DNA from: an uncultured Verrucomicrobiota bacterium
GTDB taxonomy: Bacteria; Verrucomicrobiota; Kiritimatiellia; CAIKKV01; CAITUY01
Length of the DNA: 64,000 bases
Assembly (NCBI GenBank): GCA_964584205.1
Contig: CAZOZF010000002.1
Span: 160-64,159, forward strand
Reading direction: 5' to 3'
This document shows positions 6,907 through 56,791 of the stretch, piece by piece (within the stretch, counting starts at the first letter, position 1; each line of letters starts with the position of its first letter). The notes under the pieces are model-generated. The model worked only from the letters and a program-made list of their open reading frames with translations. It made no database searches and had not been told where the DNA came from. Position numbers and translations under genes: made by a program.

Positions 6907-6951
6907 GTGACCTGATTTGTCCAAAAATAGCCCCGAAATGCTCTAGGCAGG
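6907..6951 (+). promoter_or_regulatory. conserved upstream motif copy D (gtgacctgatttgtccaaaaatagccccgaaatgctctaggcagg)
   Basis: One of six copies of a ~47-nt motif; lies ~68 bp upstream of the 7020 start of the 582-aa surface protein gene. Confidence 0.5.
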
Positions 6952-7019
6952 CAGTGTGGGTTATGAGAAAATAGATGACTGAGGACAAGGTTGGTCTTTC
7001 AGCAAGGGGTGGTGAAGAT

Positions 7020-8723
7020 ATGAAGTCAAAGTTTCTGAATCCTTGTAAGCCACATTTCAGTAGTCGGTTCATTCAAGTGGCTTGGGCATCGGTTGCGTTG
7101 TTCTGCTGTGCTTTCGGCGCCGGTACGGCCTCTGCGGAAGCCAATTACTGGGACAGCAATGGCGCCAGCGCCAGCTTCGGTGCGGCTGGGGGTACGTGGG
7201 GAACGGATGCCTTCTGGAGCACGAATAGCGCTGGCGACACTTTGCCATCCATCACCAATCCCTCAACCTCCGACGACCTCAACTTCGGCTACACCAGCAC
7301 CGGCTTGAGCAATGGGACTATCACTGTTGTCACCGGCAGTGCCAACAGTCTGACCTTTGCGGCCGGGTCGGGTGCCATTACGTTATCCGGCGGCACGATC
7401 ACCTTGGCCGATGCCGCCACGATTTCCGTGAATAACGCCCCTACAAATGTCATCAGTTCGGTTATTGCGGGGGCGGCCACCAGCTTGACCAAGGTCGGAA
7501 CGGGGACTTTGACGCTGAGCGGCCTCAATACCTACAGCGGCGGGACGACCATCAGCGCGGGAACGGTTATCGTCGGAAATACCAATGCGTTGGGAACGGC
7601 GGGTGCGATTACGTTGGGGGATGTCAATTCCGGCGCAAATGCGATTACGTTGGTGGCCACTGCCAATCCGTATTCTCGTGCCTTCACCGTGGCAAACTAT
7701 GGGGGCGTGGTGACCCTTGCAACCGCCGGCGGGAAGTTTTCGGGGGCGATCACCTTGAACCGTGGCGTTAAACTGATACCGAATTCAAATAATGCGGCCA
7801 ATTTTGATGGTGGTTTTTCGGGGTCGGGTGATCTGACAATTGCGAATTATAATGGTTATGGCGTCAATTTCCGCTTCGCCGACAATACCTTTACTGGCAG
7901 CGTATTTGTTCTTGCGGGTAGCACGTTTGGGGTTGGTGGTGGCCAGTCGCTAACCGGGTCGCTCAAAAGCCTGATTCCAGACTCAGCGACTGTGAATGTC
8001 CTTGGCACGATGATGTTGAGCGAGCTTGCGCGCAACGAAACTATCGATGCCCTGACCGGTTCAGGCTCTGTGACATTCGGACAAGTTGGCGACATGTTGA
8101 CCGTCGGTGGGGGCAATGGCTCTGGCACGTTCAGCGGCATTATTAGCACTTCTGGCTCCTTTGCCAAGACCGGCACCGGTGCGCAGACACTTACGGGTAT
8201 CAACACCTACACTGGAACCACAACGGTCAACGGCGGCACCCTTCTGGTGAATGGGAAAATTACGGGTGCTGGTGCCGTCACTGTCAATAGTAGCGGCACG
8301 TTGGGTGGAACGGGGATGGTCTCTGGCGCGGTGACCGTGACCTCGGGCGGGACATTCTCGCCCGGCGACCCGGCGGTGAGCAACGGCATTGGACGGGTTA
8401 CGGTTAGCAACGACGTGACATTGGCTACGAACGGGATCTTTGCAGCCCAGATCGCGGCAGGCGGACTGGTTGATATGTTGGTGTCGACGCGGACGATCTC
8501 GAACCAGAATGCGACTTTGTCGCTTTCGGTGCTGGATGTGAACGCTCTGAAGGCGGAGTTCTTTACGGTCATGGTGGCTTCCAACATCGTGGGGACGTTT
8601 AACGGGCTTCCGGGTGGAGCCGGTCTTTCGGTTGGGGGGCGAAGTTTCGTCATTTCCTATCCAGGGAATACGAACGTGGTATTACAGTCCATGTCATTGG
8701 GTATGCTTCTGATGGTGCAATAG
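7020..8723 (+). CDS. secreted autotransporter-associated beta-strand-repeat (TIGR02601-like) surface protein, 567 aa
   Basis: Gly/Thr/Asn-rich repeats LTLSGLNTYSGGTTISAGT / GTGAQTLTGINTYTGTTTVNGGTLLVNG; signal peptide begins at the internal Met (MKSKF...CAFGAGTASA) so 7020 is preferred over the ORF-track start 6975; hydrophobic C-terminus; shares a ~650-bp near-identical segment with 8862..16145. Confidence 0.75.
   Translation: MKSKFLNPCKPHFSSRFIQVAWASVALFCCAFGAGTASAEANYWDSNGASASFGAAGGTWGTDAFWSTNSAGDTLPSITNPSTSDDLNFGYTSTGLSNGTITVVTGSANSLTFAAGSGAITLSGGTITLADAATISVNNAPTNVISSVIAGAATSLTKVGTGTLTLSGLNTYSGGTTISAGTVIVGNTNALGTAGAITLGDVNSGANAITLVATANPYSRAFTVANYGGVVTLATAGGKFSGAITLNRGVKLIPNSNNAANFDGGFSGSGDLTIANYNGYGVNFRFADNTFTGSVFVLAGSTFGVGGGQSLTGSLKSLIPDSATVNVLGTMMLSELARNETIDALTGSGSVTFGQVGDMLTVGGGNGSGTFSGIISTSGSFAKTGTGAQTLTGINTYTGTTTVNGGTLLVNGKITGAGAVTVNSSGTLGGTGMVSGAVTVTSGGTFSPGDPAVSNGIGRVTVSNDVTLATNGIFAAQIAAGGLVDMLVSTRTISNQNATLSLSVLDVNALKAEFFTVMVASNIVGTFNGLPGGAGLSVGGRSFVISYPGNTNVVLQSMSLGMLLMVQ
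7509..8155. repeat. ~650-bp direct repeat, copy 1 (~90% nt identity to 14859..15505)
   Basis: By-eye alignment of nt 7509-8155 with 14859-15505 at a constant offset of 7350; encoded peptide runs NTYSGGTTISAGTVIVGNTNALG...GNGSGTFSG[IV]ISTSG and is ~90% identical. Confidence 0.8.
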
Positions 8724-8750
8724 CAGGGATTCGATAGTCCTTCTTCTGGT

Positions 8751-8797
8751 GTGACCCGATTCACCCGAAAAAAGACCTAAACCGCTCTCTTCAGGGG
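8751..8797 (+). promoter_or_regulatory. conserved upstream motif copy A (gtgacccgattcacccgaaaaaagacctaaaccgctctcttcagggg)
   Basis: ~64 bp upstream of the start of the 2427-aa gene. Confidence 0.5.
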
Positions 8798-8861
8798 AAA
8801 TAGGAAGTGGGAGAATATTCAGATGAAGATAAATTGATATTTTTTTTGAGTCAGGGGGGGT

Positions 8862-11800
8862 ATGAGAGAAAACCTATCAAGTTGTAGAATCATTCTGGGG
8901 GTCCTCGCGGTCATCTGGACCACTTTGAGTTCCTCGCAGGCGGTAACCACTGGTTTTAATCAAACAACCGTGGGGCCTCACGATTATAATACGGCCGGCA
9001 ATTGGGTCGAGAACTCGCTTCCCGGCAATGGCATCTGGGACAGTTCGCTGACGTTGGGGGCGAATCAATTCGTTACATTCACCGGCGACACCTCATTGAC
9101 CACCGCGTTGAATTTCAATTATGCCGGCAACAAATCCCTCACGCTTTATTCTTCTGCGGCTGGGACCGTCAACCTTACGCTCGGTGGTGACATTGGCGTG
9201 AATACCAGTGGCGGCACCTCGGCAAACGTCACAATTGGTAATGCGACCCAGATCCTTAATGTCAACCTAGGCGGTACAACCCGCACCATGACGGTGGCGT
9301 CCGGTCGAACGTTGACCCTTCAGAATGTCGTTTCTAGTGGTGGCATCATAAAGGGGGGTGACGGCACGCTGACGCTGAACGGCAACAACACCTACAGCGG
9401 TGGCACCACCATCAGCGCGGGAACGAATATTCTCGGAAATGCCAATGCTTTGGGCACATCGGGAACGATCACGTTGGGCTCTTCCGGTTCCGGGGCGAGG
9501 TTGATGATTGCTGGACTTACCATTACACGCCCTATCACAGTGTCTGCAGGAACGGGTACAGTAGGTATTGGTGCACAGGGCGGTACCCTTAGTGGAGTGA
9601 TCGCGCTAAACCGTCCCGTCAGCTTGAGTGGAGTTAATGTCTATGGCGGCATTTCCGGGACGGGCGATGTGACTATCGACTCTTCATTCTACAGTGGATA
9701 TCTTATAACCAGTTTCGCCGCCGTGTCCGGCGGCGGCGTAGCCAATACCTTCAACGGAAATTTGTATATTCTTTCCGGTGCCACTTTGAACGTTGGCAGC
9801 GGTTGGGCGTCGAGCATCAGTGCGATTCCTGACTCATCGACAGTGAATGTAGTTGGCACTTTAAGTATATTAAAAAGCGCGAATGGCGAAACCATTGATG
9901 CTCTGACCGGAAACGGCATTGTGACTGCGGCTTCGAGTGGTGGAACGTTAACCATTGGCAGCGCCAATGGTTCCGGTGCTTTCAGCGGTGCTATCGGTGG
10001 TTCTGGCGCCATCATCGTCAAGACGGGTATCGGGACCGAGATCTTCAGCGGCGTCAATACCTACACGGGAACCACGACCGTCAATGGCGGGGCGCTCCTC
10101 ATCAACAGCCCCGGGTCCCTTCATGCCAGCAGTGCGGTTTCCGTGAATCCCGTCGGCTGGGCAACCCTCGGGGGAAACGGTACTATTAACGGTTCGGTTG
10201 CGGTAGCTGCGGGCGGTTTTTTGGCTCCAGGTAGCGCCTCCGGCACCATCGGCAAACTCTCCCTGTCCAGCACGCTGACCCTGAACGGGGGCTTTCTGGC
10301 CTTTGATCTCAACGCGGATACAACAGCCGGTACGACCTACGATCAGATCGCCATTACCAGTACCTTGACTATGAGTGGTGTGAACGTCATTCAGCTCAGT
10401 TCCCCCTCGGGTTCGATTGCGGTGGGAACCTATACGCTCATGACCTTTGCCTCCTCGACGGCAAGCACGTTCAAATTCCCGAATGGAACCGAATCCATGA
10501 TCATCGGGAGTTCCACCCTTACTCTCATTAACGGCACCACGAGCCTGACTCTAACCGTGGCTAACGCAAGCGCTTCAGTACCGCCCTTTGCTGCCTTGAC
10601 GTGGAAAGGTAATTCCAGCGGCACATGGGACACGTCAACCGCGAACTGGCTCAATAGCGCCGCCGTCTCGTCGGCCTACGCTGAAGGGAACCAGGTTGCG
10701 TTTGATGACACCGCTTCCGGGAACTTCTCCGTCAGCGGGGGGACGGTCTCGCCCCTTTCCGTGACTGTCGGCAACACCGTCAACGCCTACACGATTTCGG
10801 CCGCGATTGCGGGCCCCACGCCTTTACTCAAAATCGGGTCGGGTACCTTGACTCTCTCTGGCGCCAACACGTACAGTGGCGGTACAACGCTCTCCGCAGG
10901 AACGCTCAATCTTGCCAATACAACGGCCCTGGGTGCTACTGCCAGCACGCTTACAATCAATGGGGGAGCCATACTCGACGGCAATGTGACGATTGCGAAT
11001 GCCAACGCTCAGAATTGGAACGGTGATTTCACCTTCAGCGGGACCAGCGGAAGTTTGAACCTGGGAACCGGTGCGGTGACGCCGAGTGCCAATCGTACGG
11101 TCACCGTTTCGGCCAATACCCTGACCGTAGGCGGGGCGATCGGCGGTGGTGCCAAGAGTTTGACCAAGCTCGGCGACGGAACCCTGATCCTTTCCGGGGC
11201 GAACACCTACAGTAGCACGACGACGGTGGGTGGCGGTACATTGAAGATAGACGCCGGGGCCGGTGGCGCTCTCAATTCCTCGTCGCCGCTGACCTTCAAC
11301 ACCGGTGGTGGCGTGTTCAATTATGATAATGCGAATGCCGGGGGCGCCAAAAGTCAGAGCCTGGGGGCGCTGACGTTCAGTGCGGGGGATGGAGTGGTGA
11401 AGGTTACGCGTACGGCGATTCAGAATGTTTTTCTGACGCTAGCTTCTAGGGCCCGCACAGCCGGAGCTTCGGGGAACTTCGTTCTCACCGACACGGCTGG
11501 CGGTGGCGTCAATGGAACGAATCTCAAAATTGCATTAACGACACCGCCCACGGCCAGTGTCTTCATCGACCAAGGCACCTTTTTCAACGGATCCTCGTAC
11601 GCCGCCTATGACTCAGGCGGGTTCGTGCGGGCAATGAATTATACCACCGATAATAGCAGTGCTGGTGGCAGCGTGGGGAGCAGCTTCACGACTTTTACGG
11701 TCGCCAGCGCGAATGGCAAACACGTCGATCTTGGCACAGCCGGAATCATTTCGGCTGCGGGGACTGAAAGCATAAAGAGTTTGCGTATTGGCGGTGTTAA

Positions 11801-14800
11801 TACCGTTACCGTGGGTGCCGGGAATACTTTAACAATCGCAAACGGGGGTATCCTCAAGACGGGTAGTAATGCCTCGTCAATTAGTGGCGGAAACGCAATT
11901 TCGCCTACTGTTGAATTAGTGGTACGCACAGATACCAGTAGTGATGCGCTGACGATCAGCACGCCGGTTACAGGATCGCAGGCTCTGACCAAATCTGGCG
12001 CCGGCACAGTGACATTTTCCGGCGCGAACACCTACAGCGGCGCGACCAAGGTCGATGCGGGCACTCTTCTGGTGAACAATACGCATATTGTCAACAGCTC
12101 GACTGAAGCTTACACCGTGTTGAACGCTGCCACGCTGGGCGGTAGTGGTCAAATTAAATTGAATCAGGTTATCACCGTCAACAGTGGCGGGTTCCTTGCC
12201 CCTGGTAACGGGCTCAATTCGTCGCTGAAAATTGATGGTGGTACCAAGGCCACCGCGGGACTTCTTACCATGTCCTCCGGTGCGAAGTTCAGCTTTTCCT
12301 TGGATGCCACCGGAGCGGGTAACCCGACCATGCTGGACTTCTGGAATTACGCGGCTAACGATTTAGCGCTCAACAGCAACGTGGTCAACCTCACGCTTTC
12401 CGGGAATCACACGCCGGGCACTTACACAAATAGCATTTTTCGCTTCTACAGCGACACGGGCAGCTCGGCGACCCCCCACGGTATCAGTTCCGGCCTGACC
12501 ATTGGTACCGTGGATTCCGGCATCTCCTCGCCCTCCATCATCTACAGTGCAAATACGATCGACGTCGCCTACACGATCCTGCCCGGGGCGGCCGATGCGA
12601 TGCGATCGACCCTGACGCCGACGAGTGCGAGTATCACGGCCAATGGGATAGCCTCACAGATCTTGACCGTTCAGGCGAAAGATTCCTACGGCAACTACCT
12701 GACCTCTGGCGGCGCGACCGTGACGATCACGAAATCCTCCGGTACGGGTACGATTGGTAGCGTGACGGACAACAACAACGGCACCTATACGGCGACGGTG
12801 ACTGCGCCGGAGACCACGGGTAGCGGCGTCTTTGTGGCGACATTGGGTGGGGACCAGGTCAAGAGCGGAGAAGGTAGCCAGACGCAGGCGGCGGTCTCCT
12901 ATGTCTCTGGCCCGGCGGATCACCTTACGATCACCTCTTCGATCTCTGGCCTGATCGCTGGCGATACGAGGGAGATTACGGCTGAAATCCGGGATGGAAC
13001 CGGGAATCTGTGCACGGGAGATTCGACCTCGGTTCATTTCTCGCAGTCGGGTGCTGGTAGCGTCAGCGGTCTCCCCGCCGATGTGGCGGCCGTTTCCGGC
13101 ATTGCGACCCAGCAGGTTACAGGCAGTGCTGGGGGTTCAGTTACCATCACCGCGCATGTGGACGGGTTGACTGATGGCAGCACGACATTCACAGTGCTCC
13201 AATCCTCGGCAAGCGCCTATTCGATTCAGGTTTCTGGGAGCAGCAGTGCGACCACGGCGGCAGGCAGTGGCGTGCATCTGACGGTGATTGCACTGGATGG
13301 CTCCGGCAACACGATGACCGATTTCGACTCCGACAAGGCCCTTTCGTTCTATGGACTGGTCAGTTCCCCGAACAGCACGGCGCCGACGGTCACCGACAAG
13401 AATGGCGTCGCAAGATCGGTCACATCCACGGTCGGTTTGCCCAACACCACGCTCACATTTGTCGATGGCGTGGCGGATGTGGGTGGCGTAGATAATCCGG
13501 TGCTAACGGCGTATAACGGAATCAGCTCAGCGGTGATGTTGCATTGCTCGGATGGAACTAAGAGCACGGAAAGTACCCATGGCTCTGGCTTGAGTTTAAC
13601 AGTTAATCCCGCCAGTGCGAGCACGCTGACGGTGAACGGGTTCCCAACCTCCGCAACGGCGGGAATACCGGGCGATGTGACGGTGACGGCCAAGGATCCC
13701 TATGGAAACACAGACCCAAGTTATGCCGGAACAATCACATTCACCGTTGGGGTGGCTGATACCGGGAAGACAGTTCCGTCCGACTTTACGTTTATACCGG
13801 CCACGCACAATGGAGCGCATGCGTTTAGCGGTGGTGTGACACTCACGAAGGCAGTCACTGGCGGCGGCCAGTCGATCATTGCGACGGACAAGAATGCCGG
13901 GAGCATTAACGGGACACAAAGCGGTATCACGGTCAATCCCGGTACGGCGAATATGCTGGCACTCGATTCGGGGGACGGGCAGCTCGGGAGCGGGTCGGCG
14001 GCTCTTGCCAGTCCCTTCGTGGTAAAGGTGACTGATGTCTACAACAATCTGGTGCCGGGCGTCACGGTTGATTTTGCGGTCTCAACGTATCCTGCGAGTG
14101 CGACGGGGCAAGCGTTGAGCCCCGCGAGTCCCGCCACAGGTAGTGATGGCAAGGCGTCCAGCACTCTAACCTTGGGAGACAAGCAGGGGGCCTATACGGT
14201 TACTGCGACGGCCTCCGTTCCCAACGGTAGCCCCGTGACCTTCACCGCCACCGCCGCGCCGATAGGATCTGTGATCAAGGCTGGTACGGGAACCGACCTT
14301 GCGGCCGTCGGAAGTTGGGATGGTGGTGCCGTGCCGGGTTCCGGCAACAAGGCCTATTGGTCGAGTGCTTCACTCGGCGCAAATCTGACACTGGGTTCCT
14401 CTGCGTCGTGGGGGAGCATCACAGTTGAGGGCGCCCTAACAGACATCGGTATCACCGGGGCGGGTACGCTCACGCTCGGCGAGAACGGCATCGATCTGTC
14501 GGCATCCCCAGTCAATCTTTCGATCGGAAACCCTATCACGCTTGGAGCCGCCCAGACATGGGTCGTGAACTCGGCTAAGACGTTGACGGCATCGGGAATC
14601 GTCGGTGGAAGCGTGGCTAGCGCACTGGTCAAGGACGGCGCGGGCACGCTTACCCTATTGCATACCAACACGTACGGTGGTGATACGACGATCAGCAACG
14701 GAACGTTCGAAATCGGCGGCGCGGGTCAATTGGGTGGCGGAACGTATACCGGTGCCATCACGAACCACGGCCTATTGCGAGTGAACAGTTCCGCCAGTCA

Positions 14801-16199: not shown

Positions 16200-16246
16200 T
16201 TGACCCGATTCGCCCTAAAAAAAACTCATAATGCTCTATGCAGACC
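16200..16246 (+). promoter_or_regulatory. conserved upstream motif copy B (ttgacccgattcgccctaaaaaaaactcataatgctctatgcagacc)
   Basis: ~70 bp upstream of the GH95 start at 16316; contains TTGACC and cATAAT hexamers. Confidence 0.5.
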
Positions 16247-16315
16247 GCCGTGAATGTGGGAGAACGTTTCGAGTTCATTTGCCGATTAATACAATGCAGG
16301 AGAAGGGTGGTCGTA

Positions 16316-18949: not shown

Positions 18950-18972
18950 TCTGTGAACTGAAAGAGATTCCG

Positions 18973-21354: not shown

Positions 21355-21401
21355 AGGGCTGTCTACCGATTCCTTCAGTTCGGATGAAGGGTAAGGATCT
21401 C

Positions 21402-25217: not shown

Positions 25218-25259
25218 TGTCGTAAATAAATGGAAAATCGTTCTGCTAAGCGTGTAAAT

Positions 25260-26849: not shown

Positions 26850-26880
26850 ACTGTTTCGCAATCATAAGTAGGAGTTCCTG

Positions 26881-30162: not shown

Positions 30163-30206
30163 CCCGAGTCACTCTGAAATCGACTCGAAACGATCTGTGC
30201 AGAAGG
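30159..30206 (+). promoter_or_regulatory. conserved upstream motif copy E (gtgacccgagtcactctgaaatcgactcgaaacgatctgtgcagaagg)
   Basis: Begins at the TGA stop of the GH78 gene; ~110 bp upstream of the 30316 start. Confidence 0.5.
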
Positions 30207-30315
30207 CACGTCATGTGAAAGACTACATACAGTCAATGCGAATCAGGTTTATTGTGGAGCCCTTCGTATTGCCGGATGTGCCACTTTTAAAAACGGGAAG
30301 ATCAGGAGTATTATC

Positions 30316-32733: not shown

Positions 32734-32766
32734 TCCGCGTAAAATGAGAATGATAGGGAGTTGTGA

Positions 32767-36372: not shown

Positions 36373-36396
36373 AATAAAACGAAAGAACACAATAAC

Positions 36397-36684: not shown

Positions 36685-36708
36685 TGATGATAACGAGAGG
36701 ATAAGGCA

Positions 36709-38709: not shown

Positions 38710-38733
38710 GATAACCGTGAAGGGACTGACATC

Positions 38734-40959: not shown

Positions 40960-40989
40960 TGATTTTAGAACAGGAAAAGAAAGGTTGAT

Positions 40990-44193: not shown

Positions 44194-44205
44194 TGGAGAA
44201 ACATT

Positions 44206-47181: not shown

Positions 47182-47210
47182 TTAGCCTTCCTGTTTTCAT
47201 TGTTTATGCG

Positions 47211-47259
47211 CTACGCCCCAATGCGCTCTAAATTAGACCCGAAACGCTCTCTTCAGACG
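47211..47259 (+). promoter_or_regulatory. conserved upstream motif copy C (ctacgccccaatgcgctctaaattagacccgaaacgctctcttcagacg)
   Basis: ~87 bp upstream of the tdh start at 47346; the 3' half is almost identical to copy A. Confidence 0.45.
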
Positions 47260-47345
47260 ATCCCGTTTGTGGGAGATTGACCGTCACAAAGAAGCTGATG
47301 AGTGATGGGGTTGAATCGCATTCAAACCTAGCGGAGGAAAGTTCC

Positions 47346-48386
47346 ATGAACCGTATGAAAGCCTTGGTAAAGCGCAACGCCACTCCAGGTCTTTGGCTGG
47401 AGGATGTGCCCTTTCCTGAGGTTGGGATTAATGATGTCCTGATCAAGGTATTCCGGACTGGGATTTGTGGCACTGATTTGCATATATACAACTGGGATGC
47501 ATGGGCTCAGAAAACCATCCCGGTTCCCCTCGTGATTGGTCATGAATTTGTCGGGACGATTGTGGAGGTCGGGGCGAACGTGAAGGATTTTCATTCTGGC
47601 GATATTGTCAGCGGGGAAGGACATGTTGTTTGTGGGCGATGCCGGAACTGCCTGGCCGGACGTCGTCACCTGTGCAAGGATACCCAGGGCGTGGGGGTTA
47701 ACCGGACTGGGGCGTTTGCGGAGTATCTGGCGTTACCCGTAACCAATGTGTGGGGACATGCGCCGGGGCTCGATCGTGATATCCAGTCCATTTTCGATCC
47801 CTTTGGGAACGCTGTTCATACCGCCCTTAAATTTGAATCGCTGGGGGAAGACGTCCTCATCACTGGAGCCGGGCCCATCGGAATCATGGCGGCGGCTGTG
47901 GCCAAGCATGCCGGGGCCCGGTATGTTGTCATTACGGATACCAATCCCTACCGACTCGATCTGGCCCGGAAAATGGGGGTGACGTTGGCGGTCGATCCGA
48001 CCCGGGAGAGTCTGCCAGAGGTTCAGAAGAAGCTCGGCATGAAGGAAGGGTTTGATATCGGATTGGAAATGAGCGGGAATCCTGGCGCCTTTCGTGATAT
48101 GCTGGCCAACATGGCACACGGGGGCAAGATTGCGATGCTGGGTATCCCTCCGGAATCGGGCACCATGGACTGGAATAAGGTCATTTTCAATATGTTGACG
48201 ATCAGTGGGATCTACGGGCGGGAGATGTATGAGACCTGGTACAAGATGACAGCGCTTTTGCAGTCCGGACTGGATATTAGCCAGATTGTGACCCATCGAT
48301 TCCACTATACGGACTTCCAGAAAGGGTTTGATGCGATGCTTTCAGGGAACTGCGGGAAAGTGGTGCTGACCTGGTGTGAGGGGTGA
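47346..48386 (+). CDS. tdh: L-threonine 3-dehydrogenase
   Basis: Colinear similarity to E. coli Tdh along the full length ([58 protein letters not shown]...[21 protein letters not shown]...[25 protein letters not shown]); ggagg RBS ~9 nt before this Met (ORF-track start 47277 is too far upstream). Confidence 0.93.
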
Positions 48387-48389
48387 TAT

Positions 48390-49577
48390 ATGCTTACTCA
48401 TTCCTTCAAGTTGCAATTGAGCGGGACGATGGAAGAGATACGCGGCGCGGGCCTTCTTAAGAACGAGCGGATCATCGCGTCCCCGCAACGCCCCAGACTC
48501 AGTACCTCTGTCCGGGCTGAGGTGCTCAATATGTGTGCCAATAACTATCTCGGGTTGGCCTCCCATTCCGAGGTGATTGCCGCAGCCCATGCCGCTCTCG
48601 ATCAATGGGGCTATGGTATGGCCAGTGTCAGGTTTATTTGTGGCACCCAGCCATTGCATAAGCAGTTGGAGCAGGCCTTAAGTGATTTTCTCGGAATGGA
48701 GGAAACCCTTCTGTATTCCTCCTGTTTCGATGCGAACGGTGGGTTGTTTGAAACCCTGCTTGGCGAGCCGGACGCCGTTATTTCTGACGAACTCAACCAT
48801 GCCTCGATCATCGATGGGATCCGCTTGTGCAAAGCCAGGCGTTACCGCTACCTGAACAACGATATGGCCGACCTTGAGGCCCGGCTCCGGGAGGCTCTGG
48901 ATGCGCGTCATCGCTTGATCGCCACCGATGGGGTTTTCTCGATGGATGGCACGTTGGCCAACCTGCCGGCAATCTGTGATCTGGCTGAACGTTATGATGC
49001 GATGGTTATGGTTGACGATTCCCATGCCGTTGGCTTCATGGGTGCCCATGGCCGGGGAACGCACGAACATCATGGGGTGATGGGGCGGGTGGACATTATT
49101 ACCGGCACGCTCGGAAAGGCGTTGGGTGGCGGCTGCGGTGGGTATACCAGCGCCCGTGCCGGCATAGTTCAGTTGCTTCGTCAAAGGTCACGCCCTTACC
49201 TTTTTTCCAATTCCCTGCCACCCCCGGTCGTCGGGGCTTCTCTGAAAGTCATGTCGATGTTGGTTCATTCGGCCGAACTGCGTGACCGGTTGGAGTCCAA
49301 TGCCCGCTTTCTCCGTGAGGGCCTTGCCCGGGCCGGATTCACACTGGTTTCCGGCGTTCATCCGATTATTCCGATTATGTTGGGCGATGCCGCCCTGGCA
49401 ACGCGTATGGCAGACCGGCTCCTTGAGAAGGGCGTCTATGTGATTGGTTTCTCTTATCCGGTGGTGCCCGTTGGAAAGGCTCGTATCCGCGTGCAGGTTT
49501 CGGCCGCCCATACGCGTGCCGATCTGGAGTTCGCGCTTCAGATGTTTACCGAAGTGAAGCAAGAGTTCGGTGTTTAG
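48390..49577 (+). CDS. kbl: 2-amino-3-ketobutyrate CoA ligase (glycine C-acetyltransferase), PLP-dependent
   Basis: Kbl/AONS-family signature ([46 protein letters not shown]...[15 protein letters not shown]; FSMDG lysine region); immediately downstream of tdh. Confidence 0.93.
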
Positions 49578-49591
49578 GAGTAACAGCCCGA

Positions 49592-51823
49592 TTGAAAATG
49601 GTTTTGCTAGCAGGGATGTGCGCGTGTGTTGGCGTGGGTGGTGTTTCTGGCTCGAGCCAGGCGATTCCGTTTCCGGAGGCGTTGCAGGATGCCGCGATGT
49701 CGGTTGCCAAAATGACGGACGGGCAAAGCGAAGGACTGATTGTCGGCAACGGCGACCTGTACGGGGTGGTCTGGGAGAAACAAGGCGGGCTTTTCCTGCG
49801 GATCACCCGCAATGAGATCTGGGACGCGCGGCTTGATACTTCAAAAGATGGTCCTATTTCCCGGGTGAATGTCCGATCCCGGGCGGTGACTGGTACGACG
49901 GGCGCTCCGCCAAGTTATGGCTCTCCTTATCCCCAGCCACGGTGTGCGGCCGCTATCCGAATCGGGGGTGCGGCGCCGGCGCTCGCTAAAGGGGATGTGG
50001 ATTTGCGGCGGGCGGTCATGACGGTGACGTCCGGCAACAGCAAATGTACCGAGATCCGGGCCCTGGCCGACCGGAATGTAATGCTTATCAATACGGCAGG
50101 CAAGGTGGCGATAGAGGAGATCCTTTCCGGAACCCTGCCCCGGGCCAAGGCCGGAACCACCGACGGTGTCGCCTGGCTGCATATGGTGATGCCCGGGGAT
50201 GTCGACTATAAGGGGATGGAATACAGTGTCGCGGTGGCAGGTGATGGGCGGATGAAAACCGTTTCACTTGTCACATCATTTGACGTAGCTACAGGGGATG
50301 TGTGCCGTGCCGCGATTGCCTTGGCCACCAAGACGCTCGACGAGGTGAACAAGAGCCCGGACGCGTTGATCGCGAAGCATGAGGGGGTTTGGGTTGATTA
50401 CTGGGCCCGCAGCGGTATTGCGCTGGCGGATCGGGACTTTCAGCGTTGGTGGTACCGGATGTTGTATTTTGCGCGGACCATCTGTCAGCCCGGTGGCCGG
50501 TTCCCGCCGGGCCTGATGCCACCTCTGGTAACGGATAACACACCTTGGCATGCGGATTTCCACTTCAATTACAACTCATGGCAGCCGTTCTGGTCGGTTG
50601 TTTCGGCGAATCATGCTGACCTTGCGGATTCGTGGCTTACCTACGTTGATGGATTGTTGCCGCGGGCGCAGTGGCAGGCCAGGGAAATCTATGGCTGTGA
50701 CGGGGTCTTCTATTCGATTTCCCAGTATCTGCACGAACCGGATCCGGCCATCTGTAAGAGTGTCAACAAGCGGGCCGGACCGATGAATCCGTGGGGAATG
50801 ACCATCGGTATGGTGGGAATGACGGCCCAGAGTCTGTGGCACCGGCACCTGTGCGATCCGGATCGCGCCATCCTGGAAAAGAAGATCTACCCGACGTTGA
50901 GGGAAGCGGCGCGGTTTTATGTTTCCTTCATGAAGCAATGCGGCAGGGATGCGGATGGGAAAGTCTTGCTGGGGCCATCGTACAGTCCTGAGCATGGTAA
51001 TATGGGTATCGACAATTGTCCCTTTGATATTGCCTATGTTCATTACACGTTTGAGGCCTTTTGCAAAGCCGCCCGTGAGCTGGGTAAGGATCCGGCGCTG
51101 GTGGCAGAGTGCCAGGACATGAAGACGCTTCTTTCCGAATACCCTGTGGCGTTGGATGCCCAAGGACAACCGGTTGTCGTGGACTGGCGAGGCTGTAAGT
51201 ACAAAGAAGTCCCCATTCATAATCTGACCGTTCCGGCGGCGCCTGTGTTTCCCGGCGAGCAGGTGACCTGGTTCTCTCCGGAGCCGGTCAAGGAGTTGTT
51301 TCGCCGCACCATTCGTGACACCCGGTTCAATGGCAATAATTCACACGTCATATTTAATATTGCCAAGGCCCGTTTATCCATGCCTGAAGCGTTATCTGAT
51401 GCCCGGCAATGGTTTAAAAGCCGGGAGCTGCACAATGGTCTGTTCGTTTGGCAGGGACATGAGCATGGGACTTTTATGACGGAAAGCATCGGGGTTACGG
51501 CGCTGGTAACCGAATTCCTGATGCAGAGTGTGGGGGATATCATTCGGGTCTTTCCTTGTTGGCCGAAAGACCAGCCCGCTTCGTTCCGCCAATTGCGGGC
51601 GCAGGGCGGCTTCCTTGTGTCTTCCAGTCAGCAGGCGGGCAAGGTGGTTATTCTGGAAATCACCTCGACCGTCGGCGGGCGATTGCGGGTGTTGAGTCCG
51701 TGGCCGACGCTTATGGTAAAGTGCGGCCTTGATGGGGCGAAGCTCATGAACCCTGATGCTCAAGGTGTCGTGACGCTGAGTACGCAGCCCGGCGAGCACG
51801 TGGTGTTTGGACCGGCGGAGTGA
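49592..51823 (+). CDS. secreted GH95-like (alpha/alpha)6-barrel glycosidase, divergent from canonical GH95 (paralog 1 of 2)
   Basis: Signal peptide; N-terminal LIVGNGDLYGVVW...RNEIWDARL and the block WHADFHFNYNSWQPFW echo GH95 motifs (GNGRLGAMVFGG; DYHxNINxQMNYW) at low identity; tandem paralog follows. Confidence 0.6.
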   Translation: MKMVLLAGMCACVGVGGVSGSSQAIPFPEALQDAAMSVAKMTDGQSEGLIVGNGDLYGVVWEKQGGLFLRITRNEIWDARLDTSKDGPISRVNVRSRAVTGTTGAPPSYGSPYPQPRCAAAIRIGGAAPALAKGDVDLRRAVMTVTSGNSKCTEIRALADRNVMLINTAGKVAIEEILSGTLPRAKAGTTDGVAWLHMVMPGDVDYKGMEYSVAVAGDGRMKTVSLVTSFDVATGDVCRAAIALATKTLDEVNKSPDALIAKHEGVWVDYWARSGIALADRDFQRWWYRMLYFARTICQPGGRFPPGLMPPLVTDNTPWHADFHFNYNSWQPFWSVVSANHADLADSWLTYVDGLLPRAQWQAREIYGCDGVFYSISQYLHEPDPAICKSVNKRAGPMNPWGMTIGMVGMTAQSLWHRHLCDPDRAILEKKIYPTLREAARFYVSFMKQCGRDADGKVLLGPSYSPEHGNMGIDNCPFDIAYVHYTFEAFCKAARELGKDPALVAECQDMKTLLSEYPVALDAQGQPVVVDWRGCKYKEVPIHNLTVPAAPVFPGEQVTWFSPEPVKELFRRTIRDTRFNGNNSHVIFNIAKARLSMPEALSDARQWFKSRELHNGLFVWQGHEHGTFMTESIGVTALVTEFLMQSVGDIIRVFPCWPKDQPASFRQLRAQGGFLVSSSQQAGKVVILEITSTVGGRLRVLSPWPTLMVKCGLDGAKLMNPDAQGVVTLSTQPGEHVVFGPAE

Positions 51824-51847
51824 TGTAGTCGGAAATTGGAGGTTAGC

Positions 51848-53962
51848 ATGAGGAAACTGGGCATTGGGGCCGTTCTAATAAGTGCCGTTCTGTCGGCGCA
51901 GGGTATGAACTACAGCGGGGTTTTTACCGAGCCGCCGAAAAGTGTTCCAACCTACTACATGCCTGATGGGCCCCTGCTGGGGAACGGCGATGTCGGTGTC
52001 GTGCTGGCAGGTCCACCGGAAGAGCAGCGTTTTTACATCGGCAAGAATGACTGGTGGGGGTATGGCGATGGCTCACGCGCGATGCCGGCCGGCGGATTGA
52101 CGCTTGCGATAACCGAGTTGAAAGGCGCGAGCTACCGGCAGGAACAGGATTTGGCTTTGGCGGAAGTCCGAGGCTCGTTCACCAATGGCGAGGTGGTGGT
52201 GCAGACACGGTCGTTTGTTGATGCCGAGTCCAACCTGCTGATAACGGAAGTGAAGTGCGCCGGGACAAAGCCGGTGACGGCCGTTTTTTCACAGAGAAAC
52301 GGTTTAGATGATCCCTGGGGAACCCGACGGACAAGTATTCCATCCGGCATCCTGTGTTGTACACGGGTGAGCGGGGATGCTCCTCCTGAAAAGAGGATGG
52401 AGATAGGGGTCGTGAGCCGCATCATCGGTGGAGCGCTGGTCGTGGACAGCGCAGGCACAATAACGTTGACCCTCAAAGCAGGCGAAGTCGTAACGATTGT
52501 AACGTGTGTGCTCTCCAAACTGGACGATCCTGGTTTTCTTGAGTCGGCAAAAAAGAAAGTGTCAGCATTGGAGATAAAGGACTTTCGGTCCATTTCAATC
52601 AAGCACAGGGAGTGGTGGAAGAATTTCTGGTCAAAATCGTTTATAGAGATTCCCGATAAGGAGATTGAGAAGCGCTGGTACGCAGCCTTGTATGTGATGG
52701 GGTCTTGTAGCAAGGCGGGGAAGGTCGCGCCCGGGTTGTGGGGGTGCTGGGTCACCATTTTTGCCCAATGGCAGGGCGATTATCACTTGAATTATAATTT
52801 TCAGGCGCCGTATTACATCGTCTATTCCAGTAACCATGCCGATTTGTCAGCCCCCTATTATCGGGCGATCCTGGAGTCGGTGCCTCGAGCCAGAGAGGTG
52901 GCAAGGAAGAACGGGTGGAAAGGCGTGCACTTTCCAGTATGTATTGGTCCCCGGGGTATTTTTCCGGAGGGGGAAAGGGATCATGGACAGCGTTCGAATG
53001 CCGCGTATGTGGCCTTGAATTTCATCTGGCAGTACCAGTATACGAAGGATAAGGAATTCCTGAAGACGACGGCCTATCCGTATCTGCTGGAAGTGGCGGC
53101 ATTCTGGGAGGATTACCTCAAGCTGGAAAACAAACGGTATGTGATCTACAAGGATGCCATCCATGAGGGGTCAGGCGATAACATAAACCCGATTCTCTCG
53201 CTGGGGCTTGTCAGGACACTTTTCACGAGCCTGATATCCATGAGCAAGGATATCGGTGTGGATGAGGCCCGGCGTGCGAAGTGGCAGGACATCCTGGACA
53301 AGCTCAGCGCATTCCCGTTACAGGAGCGCAATGGGAAAACCGTGTTCCGTTATACGGAGAAGGGGTTGGATTGGTGGAAAGACAACACTCTGGGTATCCA
53401 GCATATCTTTCCGTGTGGCACCATCGGCCTGGACAGCGATCCAAAGCTGCTGGAAATCTGCCATAACACAATTGACGAGATGGGGCGTTGGGCTGATTAC
53501 AACGGCTTTTCATCGTGGTATACCGCCTGTGCCCGTATCGGGTACGATCCCAAAACGATCCTGACGAAAATGCGTACGGAGTGTGATAAGCATTCCTTTC
53601 CGAATCTCCTGCTATTTTATGGTGGTGGCGGAATAGAGAGTTGTGGTGGCTTTCTGGCGATCAACGAGATGTTATTGCAGAGCCATGAGGGTGTGCTCCG
53701 CTTTTTCCCTTGCTGGCCCAGGGATCAGGATGCCCGCTTTGGGACGCTGCGCGCTGTGGGTGCCTTCCTTGTCAGCGCCGAGCTGAAGAATGGCGTGGTC
53801 GGCGGCGTGAAGATCATCAGTGAGAAGGGGGCCGATTGTACCGTGCAGAACCCCTGGCCCGGCAAGAAGGTGACCATCTCCGGCCGGAAGCCGCTTGAGG
53901 GCGCGCGGTTCACGTTCAAAACCAAGCCGGGCGAAATCATGGAATTGCGGCCGCAAACATGA
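51848..53962 (+). CDS. secreted GH95-like (alpha/alpha)6-barrel glycosidase (paralog 2 of 2)
   Basis: ggagg RBS 5 nt before the ATG at 51848 (the ORF track began at an upstream TTG, 51836); signal peptide MRKLGIGAVLISAVLSAQG; LLGNGDVGVVL...KNDWWGYGDG, WQGDYHLNYNFQAPYY; colinear with 49592..51823. Confidence 0.6.
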   Translation: MRKLGIGAVLISAVLSAQGMNYSGVFTEPPKSVPTYYMPDGPLLGNGDVGVVLAGPPEEQRFYIGKNDWWGYGDGSRAMPAGGLTLAITELKGASYRQEQDLALAEVRGSFTNGEVVVQTRSFVDAESNLLITEVKCAGTKPVTAVFSQRNGLDDPWGTRRTSIPSGILCCTRVSGDAPPEKRMEIGVVSRIIGGALVVDSAGTITLTLKAGEVVTIVTCVLSKLDDPGFLESAKKKVSALEIKDFRSISIKHREWWKNFWSKSFIEIPDKEIEKRWYAALYVMGSCSKAGKVAPGLWGCWVTIFAQWQGDYHLNYNFQAPYYIVYSSNHADLSAPYYRAILESVPRAREVARKNGWKGVHFPVCIGPRGIFPEGERDHGQRSNAAYVALNFIWQYQYTKDKEFLKTTAYPYLLEVAAFWEDYLKLENKRYVIYKDAIHEGSGDNINPILSLGLVRTLFTSLISMSKDIGVDEARRAKWQDILDKLSAFPLQERNGKTVFRYTEKGLDWWKDNTLGIQHIFPCGTIGLDSDPKLLEICHNTIDEMGRWADYNGFSSWYTACARIGYDPKTILTKMRTECDKHSFPNLLLFYGGGGIESCGGFLAINEMLLQSHEGVLRFFPCWPRDQDARFGTLRAVGAFLVSAELKNGVVGGVKIISEKGADCTVQNPWPGKKVTISGRKPLEGARFTFKTKPGEIMELRPQT

Positions 53963-53987
53963 AGAACCTTCTTAAGGAGATGCTAAA

Positions 53988-56453
53988 ATGAAGAAAATCT
54001 TATGCAGGACCGTGATGCGTTTCATCCTGTTGGTGCTTTTGCCTTCCAGCATGATGGGAGCAGGCTCTGCTAACATGCAGTTAAGACGCACGGTCAATCT
54101 TGACGGCCCGTGGCAGATTGCCCAGGGCGGTATGGATAAGGTTCCTGATAAATTCGAGCATACGGTCCCGGTGCCCGGTCTGGTGGATCTGGCGACCCCG
54201 GCGTTTAGTGACGTTGGCATCCGGACTGGCGTGCGTAGCGCCTTCTGGTATCGGAGGACGTTCACGCTGGAGGGCAAAGTTCCTTCCGTGGCCACGCTTA
54301 AAATCGGCAAAGCCATGTTCGGGGCAAGTGTGATTCTGAACGGCAAGTCGCTCGGGGAACATCTGCCCTGTTTCACGCCCGGATTGTTCAACGCGCGCGA
54401 GGCGCTGAAAGCTGGCGAGAACGAAGTGGTCATCCGCATCGGTGCGACCCGGGAATCCTTGCCGAATACCATGCCCAGCGGTTTTGACGAGGAGAAGAGC
54501 CGTTACATTCCTGGACTATTCGATTCCGTCGAGTTGCTGCTATCGGGGACGCCCGCCATCGTCAACGTTCAGGTTGCGCCGGATGTGACCAACCAGCAGG
54601 CTCGGGTGCGTCTCTGGCTGGCGCAGGTGACGGAGGGGGAGGTGACCGTTGAAGTGAGCGAGGCGAAGTCAGGCAAGGTGGCTGGCAAGGCGACAGGTCG
54701 CCTGGTGCCCGGTGTGGAGCAAACGCTGGATATGGTTGTGCCGCTGACCCAATGCCAGCTGTGGTCGCCGGAAACCCCATTCCTGTATGAGCTTACCGCC
54801 AGGACGCCTGGGGACAGCTTCACGACGCGCTTCGGGCTGCGCGAGTTCCGGTTGGATCCTGTAACAGGACGGGCAATGCTCAATGGCAAACCCTATTTTA
54901 TGCGCGGCAGCAATTTTACCGTGTACCGGTTTCTTGAGGACGCTGACCGTGCGGCGTTGCCCTGGGATGAAGCCTGGGTGCGCCTGCTGCATAAGCGCGT
55001 GAAAGATATGCACTGGAACTCCTTACGCTACAGCATCGGGTTCCCTCCTGAAGCCTGGTACCGAATTGCAGACGAGGAAGGTATCCTGATCCAGGATGAA
55101 TTCCCCATTTGGAAGCTGCCGGATACCGTGAAGACACCTGAACTGGCGAAAGAATATGAAGAGTGGATGCGCGAACGGTGGAACCATCCTTGCGTTGTGA
55201 TCTGGGACGGTAATAATGAGACATGGACCGACCAGACGGCGCCCGCGATCAAGCAGGTGCGCGGTCTCGACATGTCAAACCGTCCATGGGACAACAGCTA
55301 CCAGTACCCGGCGGAGCCTGGTGATGTGTACGAGGCGCACCCTTATCATTTCAATGAGAACAACTTCATACTGGCTGATCTCGCTACTGCCGATAAAGTT
55401 CCGCAGGGGAACGTTACGAGGAACGACAGTAAACATGCGGTGATCATCAACGAGTATGGTTGGCTTTGGTTGACCCGAGACGGCCTGCCCACGACGCTCA
55501 CCAAGAAACATTATCAGCGATGGCTTGGAAAAGATTCCACGGTAGAGCAGAGGCGGAACCTCTATGCGCGCTATCTTGCGGCGGACACGGAATTCTGGCG
55601 TGCCAATCGCAAGGTTGCAGGGGTGATGGAATTCTCGTCGTTGAGCTATTCACGTCCAAATGGCCAGACCAGCGATCATTGGCTTGATGTGAAAAAGCTG
55701 ACCTGGGAGCCTGAGTTCTATCATTATGTGAAGGACGCATTCGCTCCGGTGGGACTCATGCTCGATACCTGGCGTGAGCGCTGGATGATCGGGGAGACGG
55801 CGACGTTTCCGGTTGTGGTCGTCAACGATCTGGAAAAGCCGTGGAAGGGACAGGTTCAGTTTTGCCTTAAGAAACAGGACAAGGTCATTGCAAAACAGAA
55901 ACTTCCTGCTGAGGTGGCAGGTCTGGGCACCAACCGGATTGAGTTTGCCTCGTTAGTCTTGAAGGAAGGCGGTGACTATGTTGCGGAAGCCACTCTGCTG
56001 GATACGCCCGACGGTCCGGTGAGCAGTGTGCGCCACTTCACGGCTTATACGCCGGCGCAGATAGGTCTTGCATACGGCAAACCAGTAAAGGCCTCATCTT
56101 CTGAAAATGCGAGAAACTGCACATCGCCTGACGCCGTGACGGATGGACGCCCTGACACCGGCTGGATGTCACAGGCATCCGATCCGCAGTGGATCGCCGT
56201 TGATCTCGGAGCTTCAACCAAGATCAGCCGGGTGGAGTTGATGTGGGCGCTGGCGTCCGGTGGCGGTTATGCGATCCAGGTTTCGGATGACGGTCAGAAT
56301 TGGACTGATGCTTATAAAACCAATGAAGGCCGGGGCGGCAATGAGACGATAACGTTCAATCCGGTGAGTGCGCGATGGGTTCGCGTTTACGGAACTCGCA
56401 GAAACACCGGCTGGGGATACTCGATGTGGGAGATTCGCGTGTTCGAGAAATAA
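53988..56453 (+). CDS. secreted GH2-like glycosidase with C-terminal F5/8 type C (discoidin) domain
   Basis: Signal peptide; GH2-type sugar-binding N-terminus and TIM-barrel blocks (NGKPYFMRGSNFTVYRF..., WNHPCVVIWDGNNE); C-terminal discoidin-like domain (PDTGWMSQASDPQWIAVDLGASTKISRVELMWA...WEIRVF). Confidence 0.7.
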   Translation: MKKILCRTVMRFILLVLLPSSMMGAGSANMQLRRTVNLDGPWQIAQGGMDKVPDKFEHTVPVPGLVDLATPAFSDVGIRTGVRSAFWYRRTFTLEGKVPSVATLKIGKAMFGASVILNGKSLGEHLPCFTPGLFNAREALKAGENEVVIRIGATRESLPNTMPSGFDEEKSRYIPGLFDSVELLLSGTPAIVNVQVAPDVTNQQARVRLWLAQVTEGEVTVEVSEAKSGKVAGKATGRLVPGVEQTLDMVVPLTQCQLWSPETPFLYELTARTPGDSFTTRFGLREFRLDPVTGRAMLNGKPYFMRGSNFTVYRFLEDADRAALPWDEAWVRLLHKRVKDMHWNSLRYSIGFPPEAWYRIADEEGILIQDEFPIWKLPDTVKTPELAKEYEEWMRERWNHPCVVIWDGNNETWTDQTAPAIKQVRGLDMSNRPWDNSYQYPAEPGDVYEAHPYHFNENNFILADLATADKVPQGNVTRNDSKHAVIINEYGWLWLTRDGLPTTLTKKHYQRWLGKDSTVEQRRNLYARYLAADTEFWRANRKVAGVMEFSSLSYSRPNGQTSDHWLDVKKLTWEPEFYHYVKDAFAPVGLMLDTWRERWMIGETATFPVVVVNDLEKPWKGQVQFCLKKQDKVIAKQKLPAEVAGLGTNRIEFASLVLKEGGDYVAEATLLDTPDGPVSSVRHFTAYTPAQIGLAYGKPVKASSSENARNCTSPDAVTDGRPDTGWMSQASDPQWIAVDLGASTKISRVELMWALASGGGYAIQVSDDGQNWTDAYKTNEGRGGNETITFNPVSARWVRVYGTRRNTGWGYSMWEIRVFEK

Positions 56454-56743
56454 GTATGCATGGGGAAATATTGGGGAATGCCATCTGCCCGAAATGAAAA
56501 TGTTTCACTTCATAAAGTGCAGGTTACGTGCCGAAACGAATCAGGCCATTTCAGTTTTGTTTTTAGCCCTGGTGTTTTCCGCGGTGAAGGCGGAATGTGT
56601 GGAGACGTGTCCTGTGTCGAAATACACGGCGGTGTTCACGGCACCGCCAAGGTTTAACCCGCCGCTGGACTCGCAGGGGAGAGCTGCAACATCGACAATC
56701 CGAGGGCAAATAAGGCTGTCAGTCTATATGTTTTCAGTTTGGC

Positions 56744-56791
56744 GTGACTCGAATAACTCGGAAATTGCGCCGATTCGCTCTGTTCAGGTGG
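56744..56791 (+). promoter_or_regulatory. conserved upstream motif copy F (gtgactcgaataactcggaaattgcgccgattcgctctgttcaggtgg)
   Basis: ~91 bp upstream of the 56882 start; lies in the only long (~430 bp) relatively AT-rich intergenic gap of the island. Confidence 0.45.

Follow-up and report, generated by a model that had tools for sequence, protein, structure and literature searches.

We report here that the 64,000-nucleotide stretch of contig CAZOZF010000002.1 from an uncultured Verrucomicrobiota bacterium (hereafter the window) contains seven copies of a conserved intergenic unit of about 66 bp, six on the plus strand and one, copy G, on the minus strand (4599-4534). These copies are genuine and lie far beyond chance. 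As judged from the DNA sequence, each of them probably represents a cluster-specific sigma-70 promoter that depends on an activator of the AraC/XylR type and would be bound by the XylR-type regulator encoded at 4646-5833. An earlier inspection of the letters (the sequence-only reading) had drawn attention to six copies, and these were indeed recovered at the noted places, in one gapless alignment and far above the level of shuffled sequences. Only the start of copy E had to be corrected, as its register begins at 47213 and not at 47211. The seven copies are as follows:

Copy A: 6907 to 6972, plus strand; repeat 1 at 6909-6923, repeat 2 at 6930-6944, TG at 6964-6965, -10-like hexamer GAAAAT at 6967-6972; upstream of a PATR surface-protein gene, with a transcription start predicted near 6979.
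Copy B: 8751 to 8816, plus strand; repeat 1 at 8753-8767, repeat 2 at 8774-8788, -10-like hexamer GAGAAT at 8811-8816; upstream of the gene for a 2427-residue PATR/invasin-like adhesin (ATG 8862).
Copy C: 16200 to 16265, plus strand; repeat 1 at 16202-16216, repeat 2 at 16223-16237, -10-like hexamer GAGAAC at 16260-16265; the first gene is of glycoside hydrolase family 95 (GH95; ATG 16316).
Copy D: 30159 to 30224, plus strand; repeat 1 at 30161-30175, repeat 2 at 30182-30196, -10-like hexamer AAGACT at 30219-30224; upstream of the operon from 30316 to 47181.
Copy E: 47213 to 47278, plus strand; repeat 1 at 47215-47229, repeat 2 at 47236-47250, -10-like hexamer GAGATT at 47273-47278; upstream of tdh (ATG 47346).
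Copy F: 56744 to 56809, plus strand; repeat 1 at 56746-56760, repeat 2 at 56767-56781, -10-like hexamer AAACGT at 56804-56809; upstream of an SGNH/GDSL esterase gene (56882/56894).
Copy G: 4534 to 4599, minus strand; repeat 1 at 4597-4583, repeat 2 at 4576-4562, TG at 4542-4541, -10-like hexamer GAAACT at 4539-4534; followed by ATG 4526.

The copies align without gaps over about 80 nt, and the same register is common to the seven copies of the window and three copies of a sister species. Copy G was first picked up by an nhmmer profile and falls into the same gapless alignment after a correction of its register, position 1 being 4599. A degenerate pattern derived from the copies gave 5 matches in the window, as opposed to 0.00 expected from 100 dinucleotide shuffles. 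With a position weight matrix (PWM) applied to both strands, the seven copies scored 53-69 bits (64-69 for copy A and 54 for copy G), the next best position of the window remained below 8 bits, and no further copy was detected inside genes. A weak resemblance at 49578-49620, which the sequence-only reading had left uncounted, was rightly set aside, since it is not among the listed top PWM positions. Pairwise identity was 57% within the 66-nt unit and 27%, which is the random level, in both flanks; between individual copies it ranged from 44 to 67%, with a conservation that is position-specific.

Closer examination of the unit revealed its anatomy. With the G of GTGACCCGA as position 1, one 15-nt sequence occurs in two versions, at 3-17 and at 24-38, arranged as direct repeats with a period of 21 bp. 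The consensus of the repeat is GACCCGATTYGCTCT, with base counts, out of 30 half-sites from five species, of G28 A21 C27 C25 C22 G21 A26 .. G25 C24 T24 C29 T21. Self-similarity was highest when the sequences were shifted by 21 nt, reaching 0.44 within a copy and 0.43 between one copy and another (0.37-0.38 for the runner-up offsets), and a secondary peak was present near 10 nt. The view that the element consists of two boxes at a fixed spacing holds as far as the spacing is concerned, but the 5' and 3' boxes are the best-conserved ends of these two 15-bp direct repeats. Similarly, the ~47 nt to which the element had been limited are conserved, but the unit reaches about 20 nt further in the 3' direction, up to a TGTGGGAGAAT-like block.

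Downstream of repeat 2 there is a poorly conserved hexamer (TnTnCA in the window species), followed by a variable stretch of 11-12 nt and then by an extended -10-like block, TG-n-nAnnnT. Among 15 copies from five species, the TG is present in 14, the A at the second position of the hexamer in all and the T at its sixth position in 13, and both the TG and this A are invariant among the units of the window. The distance between the end of repeat 2 and TG-n-nAnnnT, taken as a sequence pattern, is 22-23 bp in all 15 copies. In a more distant species (locus L033) the hexamers read TAGAAT and TATAAT, with an unchanged distance from repeat 2. The 3' block has, judged by its letters, the form of a sigma-70 extended -10 element; repeat 2 abuts a weak -35 position, and 17 bp separate this -35 from the extended -10. 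If the hexamer is the -10, the repeats occupy about -70 to -56 and -49 to -35. A simple sigma-70 scan gave an overall count at chance level and found no canonical -35/-10 pair at the motif copies. The hexamers TTGACC...cATAAT, which had been pointed out in a single copy, do not coincide with the promoter elements that are conserved.

The presence of boxes conserved at a fixed spacing could also be taken to indicate a promoter for an alternative sigma factor, of the extracytoplasmic function (ECF) or another type, with the conserved boxes representing its -35 and -10. PVC bacteria encode many ECF sigma factors. We nevertheless regard this explanation as highly improbable. The two strongest boxes are 21-31 bp apart, which is too far for a -35/-10 pair, no conserved pair of a -35 AAC and a -10 CGT was found at 16-17 bp, and the downstream block has the sigma-70 extended -10 form, including TAGAAT or TATAAT in L033. 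In addition, the genes of the window that carry an annotation, which amount to less than a full survey, include neither a sigma nor an anti-sigma gene.

Each of the seven copies lies between genes and has the orientation of the gene that follows it. The statement that the element is always found on the plus strand therefore has to be modified in view of copy G, whereas its relation to the direction of the genes holds for every copy. Of the eight intergenic gaps in the window that measure 100 nt or more, seven contain a copy. The sole overlap with coding sequence amounts to 4 nt, where copy D extends over the TGA (30160-30162) that terminates the GH78 gene before it. Occurrence inside coding regions at a similar frequency, which had been named as the outcome that would speak against a regulatory element, was thus not seen within the window, where no gene contains the motif apart from this stop-codon overlap. 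The eighth long gap (36372-36709) is motif-free and contains an open reading frame (ORF) of about 98 codons at 36397-36690. The end of its product presumably resembles the C-terminus of SASA-type acetylesterases, and the ORF could be either a piece of a gene or a small one in its own right.

The best supported start codons are ATGs preceded by a Shine-Dalgarno sequence, at 7020, 8862, 16316, 30316, 47346 and 56882/56894. The -10-like hexamer lies 45-91 nt upstream of these ATGs, and the motif itself starts 111-157 nt upstream of them, not 60-110 bp as first proposed. A different arrangement applies to copy G, in which ATG 4526 of the URO-D-like gene lies 7 nt after the hexamer. An ATG 7-8 nt after the hexamer is conserved in copy G and its sister-species orthologue, and it therefore leaves no space for another promoter further downstream; as the ATG follows so closely, a leaderless mRNA is predicted in both species. 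The starts of the longest ORFs or of database entries clash with the promoter geometry or with the lengths of homologues in three cases, namely ATG 6975 for the 582-residue protein, TTG 47277 for tdh and GTG 4568 for the URO-D-like gene. More plausible starts are 7020, 47346 (which gives a tdh product of 346 residues, as in all homologues) and 4526. For the first of these, ATG 6975 is located just 2 nt past the hexamer of copy A, and the in-frame, Shine-Dalgarno-preceded ATG 7020 is therefore probably the actual start.

Considering that the copies separate genes that run in the same direction, invariably lie on the sense strand and have no terminator upstream of them, one might propose that they act in the transcribed 5' leader, as an RNA element for antitermination, processing or protein binding similar to JUMPstart/ops. 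The chances of this are very slim in our judgement. RNAalifold predicted 0 base pairs for 10 copies, and searches against Rfam gave 0 matches at gathering thresholds in the whole window and none of relevance at E ≤ 10 in 6800-9000, which covers copies A and B. A 21-bp periodicity of direct repeats is a feature of double-stranded DNA. Furthermore, the start codon follows the element by 7-8 nt in copy G and its orthologue, and copy D lacks the room for a promoter upstream. The sequence-only reading had favoured a protein-binding site or promoter over a mobile repeat, and this view is borne out by the fixed spacing, by an orientation that follows the gene, and by the lack of both predicted RNA structure and Rfam matches.

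Two candidate regulators are encoded divergently next to the copies:

4646 to 5833, minus strand: XylR-type regulator gene (395 amino acids; Pfam PBP1_XylR, Peripla_BP_3 and HTH_18).
5834 to 5906, strand not applicable: intergenic region between the divergent regulator genes (73 bp), motif-free.
5907 to 6836, plus strand: second AraC-family regulator gene (309 amino acids; Pfam HTH_18/HTH_AraC), divergent from the XylR-type gene.

The XylR-type protein combines a LacI/GalR-like sugar-binding domain with an AraC-type double helix-turn-helix domain, and matches Escherichia coli XylR (PDB 4FE4) over its full length (phmmer E = 1.2e-55, residues 8-382 on 6-384). The PWM found no motif in the regulators' own intergenic region. 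The minus strand of this region holds a sigma-70-like TTAACA-16-TATTCT, which is no more than suggestive, as the promoter scan was at chance level.

The assignment of the motif to the XylR-type protein draws on a comparison with related species. The related loci were fetched, with the surrounding DNA, through homologues of the window regulator or of tdh. Two of them, L024 and L032, belong to the sister species, whose regulator is 80% identical to the XylR-type protein of the window, and are both located on ENA scaffold_212 (115 kb), L032 being 16-36 kb away. In orthologous intergenic regions of this species, the copies upstream of tdh and of the URO-D-like operon have been kept. In L024, the motif lies upstream of the orthologous URO-D-like operon (position 11768, with the same geometry as copy G), and further copies precede a PATR surface-protein gene and a sugar-transporter gene. 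In L032, a 45-bit site at position 9902, between GH2 and tdh, is the orthologous site of copy E, with a spacer 1 nt longer. L026, with a regulator 66% identical and a GC content of 66%, has a 38-bit site upstream of a PATR gene adjoining the regulator. In L033, where the regulator is 68% identical over the called part of its gene and the GC content is 62%, two 26-bit sites flank the regulator gene. The best score of mononucleotide shuffles, a weaker control than dinucleotide shuffles, was at most 12.6 bits in L032, L026 and L033, none of which had been part of the PWM training set. A site in L028 looks right by eye and is counted as marginal, with 14.7-17.6 bits compared to a shuffle maximum of 11.6. 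The XylR orthologue and the motif are thus found in the same neighbourhood in L024, L026 and L033, and marginally in L028, and the architecture persists in species of 59-66% GC with diverged sequence.

Conversely, no motif (≤0.6 bits) was detected in the tdh-fetched loci without a regulator orthologue (L012, L016 and L029-L031), and paralogue loci had no motif copies either. Consistent with this distribution, the recognition helices SRSVLQRRFR and (Y)AQNMGRVF are identical or nearly so in the orthologues that accompany the motif, whereas the paralogues differ in both. A homologue search with the XylR-type protein returned 2,646 proteins at E ≤ 1e-30, many with the same first recognition helix. 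Down to about 47% identity, XylR-type homologues show hardly any change in this first helix, and the second diverges below about 60%. This pattern of helix sequences suggests a large regulator family of PVC bacteria in which one operator sub-box would be common and the other would vary.

The second regulator deserves attention as well. It is possible, although rather unlikely, that the same promoter architecture is bound by the 309-residue AraC-family protein, that both proteins share or compete for the sites, or that the bound protein represses. In E. coli, AraC does bind XylR operators (PMC3561964). On the other hand, no orthologue of the AraC-family gene is adjacent to the motif in the 13-21 kb fetched for L024, L026 and L033, that is, in the very loci where the motif stands by an XylR-type orthologue. 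The DNA-binding domains of the two window regulators are only 31% identical, and their recognition helices differ. A repressor is disfavoured by the position of the repeats from -70 to -35, which is typical of activators.

The occurrence of the motif at nearly every sizeable intergenic gap of the window, including the one before tdh-kbl, would also be compatible with a general, lineage-specific housekeeping promoter for most genes, for instance a UP-like or global-factor site combined with a -10. We consider this quite improbable, as the window is almost entirely one glycan cluster and its regulator genes are without the motif. In the related species, PWM searches revealed no site upstream of rpsT, lptE or a serA-like gene in the 21 kb of L033, none upstream of non-sugar genes in L024, and none in the related loci before a SEC-C-domain gene and small hypothetical genes; sites are present only by the regulator or by sugar and surface genes. 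Promoters of tdh outside the cluster likewise lack the motif. The earlier suggestion of a lineage-wide housekeeping or ECF-type promoter, as opposed to an operator specific to a polysaccharide utilization locus (PUL), is therefore not supported by the relatives, in which the motif occurs only by XylR-type orthologues or upstream of glycan, transport and surface-protein genes. The argument for a role outside a PUL had been built on tdh-kbl, and it fails because tdh-kbl belongs to the glycan cluster both in the window and in the sister species, and because the upstream region of tdh differs in other relatives. The motif precedes tdh only in these two species, in whose glycan cluster tdh-kbl is embedded, and four other relatives have a tdh without it. 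L012, the closest tdh relative (91% amino acid identity), shares the GH2-tdh-kbl-GH95 synteny and has a gap of only 42 nt that is motif-free; its neighbouring XylR-like gene encodes a 27%-identical paralogue with different recognition helices. The best named matches of tdh come from Planctomycetota and Verrucomicrobiota metagenome-assembled genomes. In two relatives with tdh outside glycan clusters, a different conserved upstream element, CTTTTTTTCGTGCA(T/A)G, was observed (L029 ~40-65 and L030 ~1790-1815), and it may be a regulatory site of those tdh genes.

Searches of large collections with strict patterns gave little. Among 185,579 GTDB species genomes there were 4 matches, in unrelated taxa (a deltaproteobacterium, a cyanobacterium, Lactobacillus and Terracidiphilus), which is at chance level considering a back-of-the-envelope expectation of about 17 for a pattern of about 36 bits. 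A scan of metagenome contigs gave 7 matches, none of them convincing. Two candidates, L005 and L007, turned out to be a single non-coding, AT-rich sequence in which repeat 1 is good, repeat 2 is poor and the -10-like block is displaced, and were taken as chance. These negative results say little on the distribution of the motif, because the patterns required details of the window species (GMTCTNKNCAG and a fixed spacer) that are not conserved elsewhere. The chance-level outcome of both scans suggests a narrow distribution and, together with the presence of multiple copies in one genome region, would fit a dispersed repeat or a miniature mobile element residing in intergenic DNA. Such an origin is barely conceivable, however, for copies that are only 44-67% identical, with a position-specific conservation, and whose orientation strictly follows the gene. 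Orthologous copies are kept at the same sites in the sister species, and species of 59-66% GC still show this architecture. A reading of the copies and the adjoining DNA, which was not a dedicated repeat search, brought to light neither terminal inverted repeats nor target duplications.

Some repeats of other kinds were seen in the related loci. In L033 (~9700-9990), three tandem copies of a 32-nt unit (GCTACGTCGGGATGCGCGGAACGGATTTCCGC) lie beside an N run between the upstream motif copy and the XylR-type gene, and a hairpin-like CACCGGCTGAAAGCCGGCGCTACGGG is repeated on both sides; this looks like a family of repetitive extragenic palindromic (REP)-like repeats. In L026 (11823-12029), the URO-D-like gene is preceded not by the motif, but by a long imperfect inverted repeat of TAGTCG / CGACTA units (CTCGTAGTCG...CGACTACGAG).

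Altogether, we favour the view that each copy is an activator-dependent promoter controlled by the XylR-type regulator. The direct half-sites recur at a period of ~21 bp, the proximal one is located by a weak -35, and an AraC-family gene is nearby and co-occurs with the motif, as is typical of AraC/XylS-type promoters. According to this model, the two 15-bp repeats (GACCCGATTYGCTCT), being 21 bp or two helix turns apart, would together form an operator of ~36 bp for an AraC-family protein. A sugar-bound dimer of the XylR-type protein would place one double helix-turn-helix domain on each 15-bp repeat, and its promoter-proximal subunit would touch RNA polymerase at a promoter with a poor -35 but an extended -10. 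An ordinary sigma-70-type RNA polymerase could read this extended -10, located 17 bp past the -35. The ligand-bound regulator would thus occupy the repeats, recruit the polymerase and turn on seven transcription units together, namely two surface/adhesin genes, four glycoside hydrolase/esterase operons (one of them starting with tdh-kbl) and the URO-D-like operon. What the sequences show directly is the anatomy of the unit, where it is placed, how well it is conserved and that it co-occurs with orthologues of the regulator; from these observations we infer the binding, the activation rather than repression, the transcription starts and the choice between the two local regulators.

Several observations weigh against this model. 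The gene for the 309-residue AraC-family protein, which is transcribed away from the XylR-type gene, ends 70 nt before copy A, directly upstream of it, and its product could be what binds in the window species. The -35 position varies from species to species, the hexamers of the window are far from TATAAT, and the assignment of the -10 rests on a pattern. Repeat 2 of copy G and of its orthologue (GACCTAATGTGAACT) departs considerably from that of copies A-F. Several intergenic gaps between glycoside hydrolase genes are motif-free in the sister species. Moreover, the co-occurrence with the regulator is partly confounded with lineage, because homologues of the regulator or of tdh had served as the route to every related locus; the housekeeping promoters inspected in related species were few, and the predicted regulon covers the window, not the whole source genome.

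On a more speculative note, the unit of ~70 bp might be a self-contained operator-plus-promoter cassette, duplicated in its entirety by this lineage so that new transcription units came under one master regulon with a single XylR-type sensor. Such wiring would cover the giant adhesins, the amino-acid genes tdh-kbl and the corrinoid-methyltransferase-like operon predicted to be leaderless. The gapless 66-bp register, which includes spacers that would not be contacted, and the recruitment of tdh-kbl only in cassette-carrying species are compatible with this idea but no proof of it, and we consider it unlikely.

The transcription units that carry the motif are the following:

Unit of copy A, plus strand: PATR surface-protein gene, 582 amino acids from ATG 6975.
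Unit of copy B, plus strand: gene for the 2427-residue PATR/invasin-like adhesin, ATG 8862.
Unit of copy C, 16316 to 30162, plus strand: GH95, NPCBM/GLAA-B-like, GH78+GH43, SASA esterase and GH78.
Unit of copy D, 30316 to 47181, plus strand: melibiase-like gene at 30316, then GH27, GH36, GH127 and GH2.
Unit of copy E, plus strand: tdh, kbl, GH95, GH95 and GH2.
Unit of copy F, plus strand: SGNH/GDSL esterase gene, then a gene for a GH2-GH31 protein of 1596 amino acids.
Unit of copy G, 4526 to 116, minus strand: URO-D/MtaA-like gene, gene for a 715-residue protein of unknown function, and GFO/IDH/MocA oxidoreductase gene.

Several of the ORFs (for example those in 8862-16145 and 38734-56453) were characterised only by precomputed Pfam tags that cover part of the contig. 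The enzyme set suggests that the substrate is a plant or algal glycan rich in fucose, rhamnose, arabinose and galactose. Among the motif targets in the window there is no xylA, xylB or xylFGH; instead, the targets comprise GH95, GH78, GH43, GH127, GH36, GH27, GH2, esterases, adhesins and tdh-kbl. The regulator would therefore be XylR-like in its way of working, but not a regulator of a xylose operon.

The first gene of the copy G operon encodes a URO-D fold, with the best NCBIfam matches to the corrinoid methyltransferases MtaA/CmuA, all of them below the cut-off, and the 715-residue protein has no Pfam or NCBIfam match. The three-gene operon is conserved between the window (116-4526, minus strand) and L024 (11842-16248), and may process methylated sugars. 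The tdh-kbl pair, which converts threonine to glycine and acetyl-CoA, is located between GH2 and GH95 genes in three related species (window 47346-49577, L032 10001-11461 and L012 1484-3715). In the sister species, kbl is called at only 138 amino acids and may be truncated. One possibility to account for tdh-kbl in a glycan cluster is the use of threonine-rich glycoproteins or glycopeptides.

The regulatory principle described here is well known, and our findings do not reveal a new one. What is new is the operator sequence, its assignment to an XylR-type family of PVC-like uncultured bacteria, and the predicted extent of the regulon. In a limited literature check, no described transcription-factor regulon for glycan degradation was found in PVC-type (Verrucomicrobiota/Planctomycetota-like) bacteria, and the only PVC motif paper that surfaced concerns LexA. 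PVC-type bacteria lie outside the logic of the Bacteroidota, in which SusC/D are combined with hybrid two-component system (HTCS) regulators. The unit thus represents a testable operator (GACCCGATTYGCTCT twice, with a 21-bp period) for a widespread family of XylR-type regulators. It outlines the operons of the 55-kb cluster, suggests that the adhesins, the methyltransferase-like operon and tdh-kbl are co-regulated with the glycosidases, and could help to delimit regulons in metagenome-assembled genomes.

Lastly, the promoters of the window can be compared with three known systems. The araI1-araI2 sites of the araBAD promoter, a class II arrangement, consist of two direct half-sites of ~17 bp with a 21-bp period, the proximal one overlapping or abutting the -35. 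This geometry would be matched by the predicted positions of -70 to -56 and -49 to -35 in the window; however, the sensor domain of AraC is a cupin, whereas the window protein has a periplasmic-binding-protein fold, and an extended -10 is found here. E. coli XylR binds sites of ~37 bp, composed of two direct repeats by the -35 of promoters with poor -35 and -10 elements (PMC3561964). The operators IA and IF of xylAB and xylFGH resemble the present case in the family and domain architecture of the regulator, with full-length homology, and in the ~36-37-bp operator with two direct repeats by the -35 and a weak core, all of which is predicted from sequence here. They differ in that their consensus is the A/T-rich gaAa-a-a-AAT and not GACCCGATTYGCTCT, in their recognition helices, and in that E. 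coli XylR serves two divergent xylose operons, whereas the targets here number at least seven, are co-directional, extend over 55 kb and comprise adhesins and tdh-kbl among others. For the AraC-type HTCS regulators of Bacteroides polysaccharide loci, direct-repeat motifs of 16+5, 12+9 and 14+6 bp have been predicted (PMC3878776). No SusC/D genes were seen among the annotated genes of the window, and the membrane-bound HTCS proteins, which accompany SusC/D in Bacteroidota, contrast with the soluble one-component XylR-type protein described here. Yet the operators themselves are alike in their direct repeats of 12-16 bp, spacers of 5-9 bp and a period of 20-21 bp, in serving several operons of one glycan locus, and in having been recognised by means of comparative genomics (Ravcheev et al. 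2013; PMC3878776).

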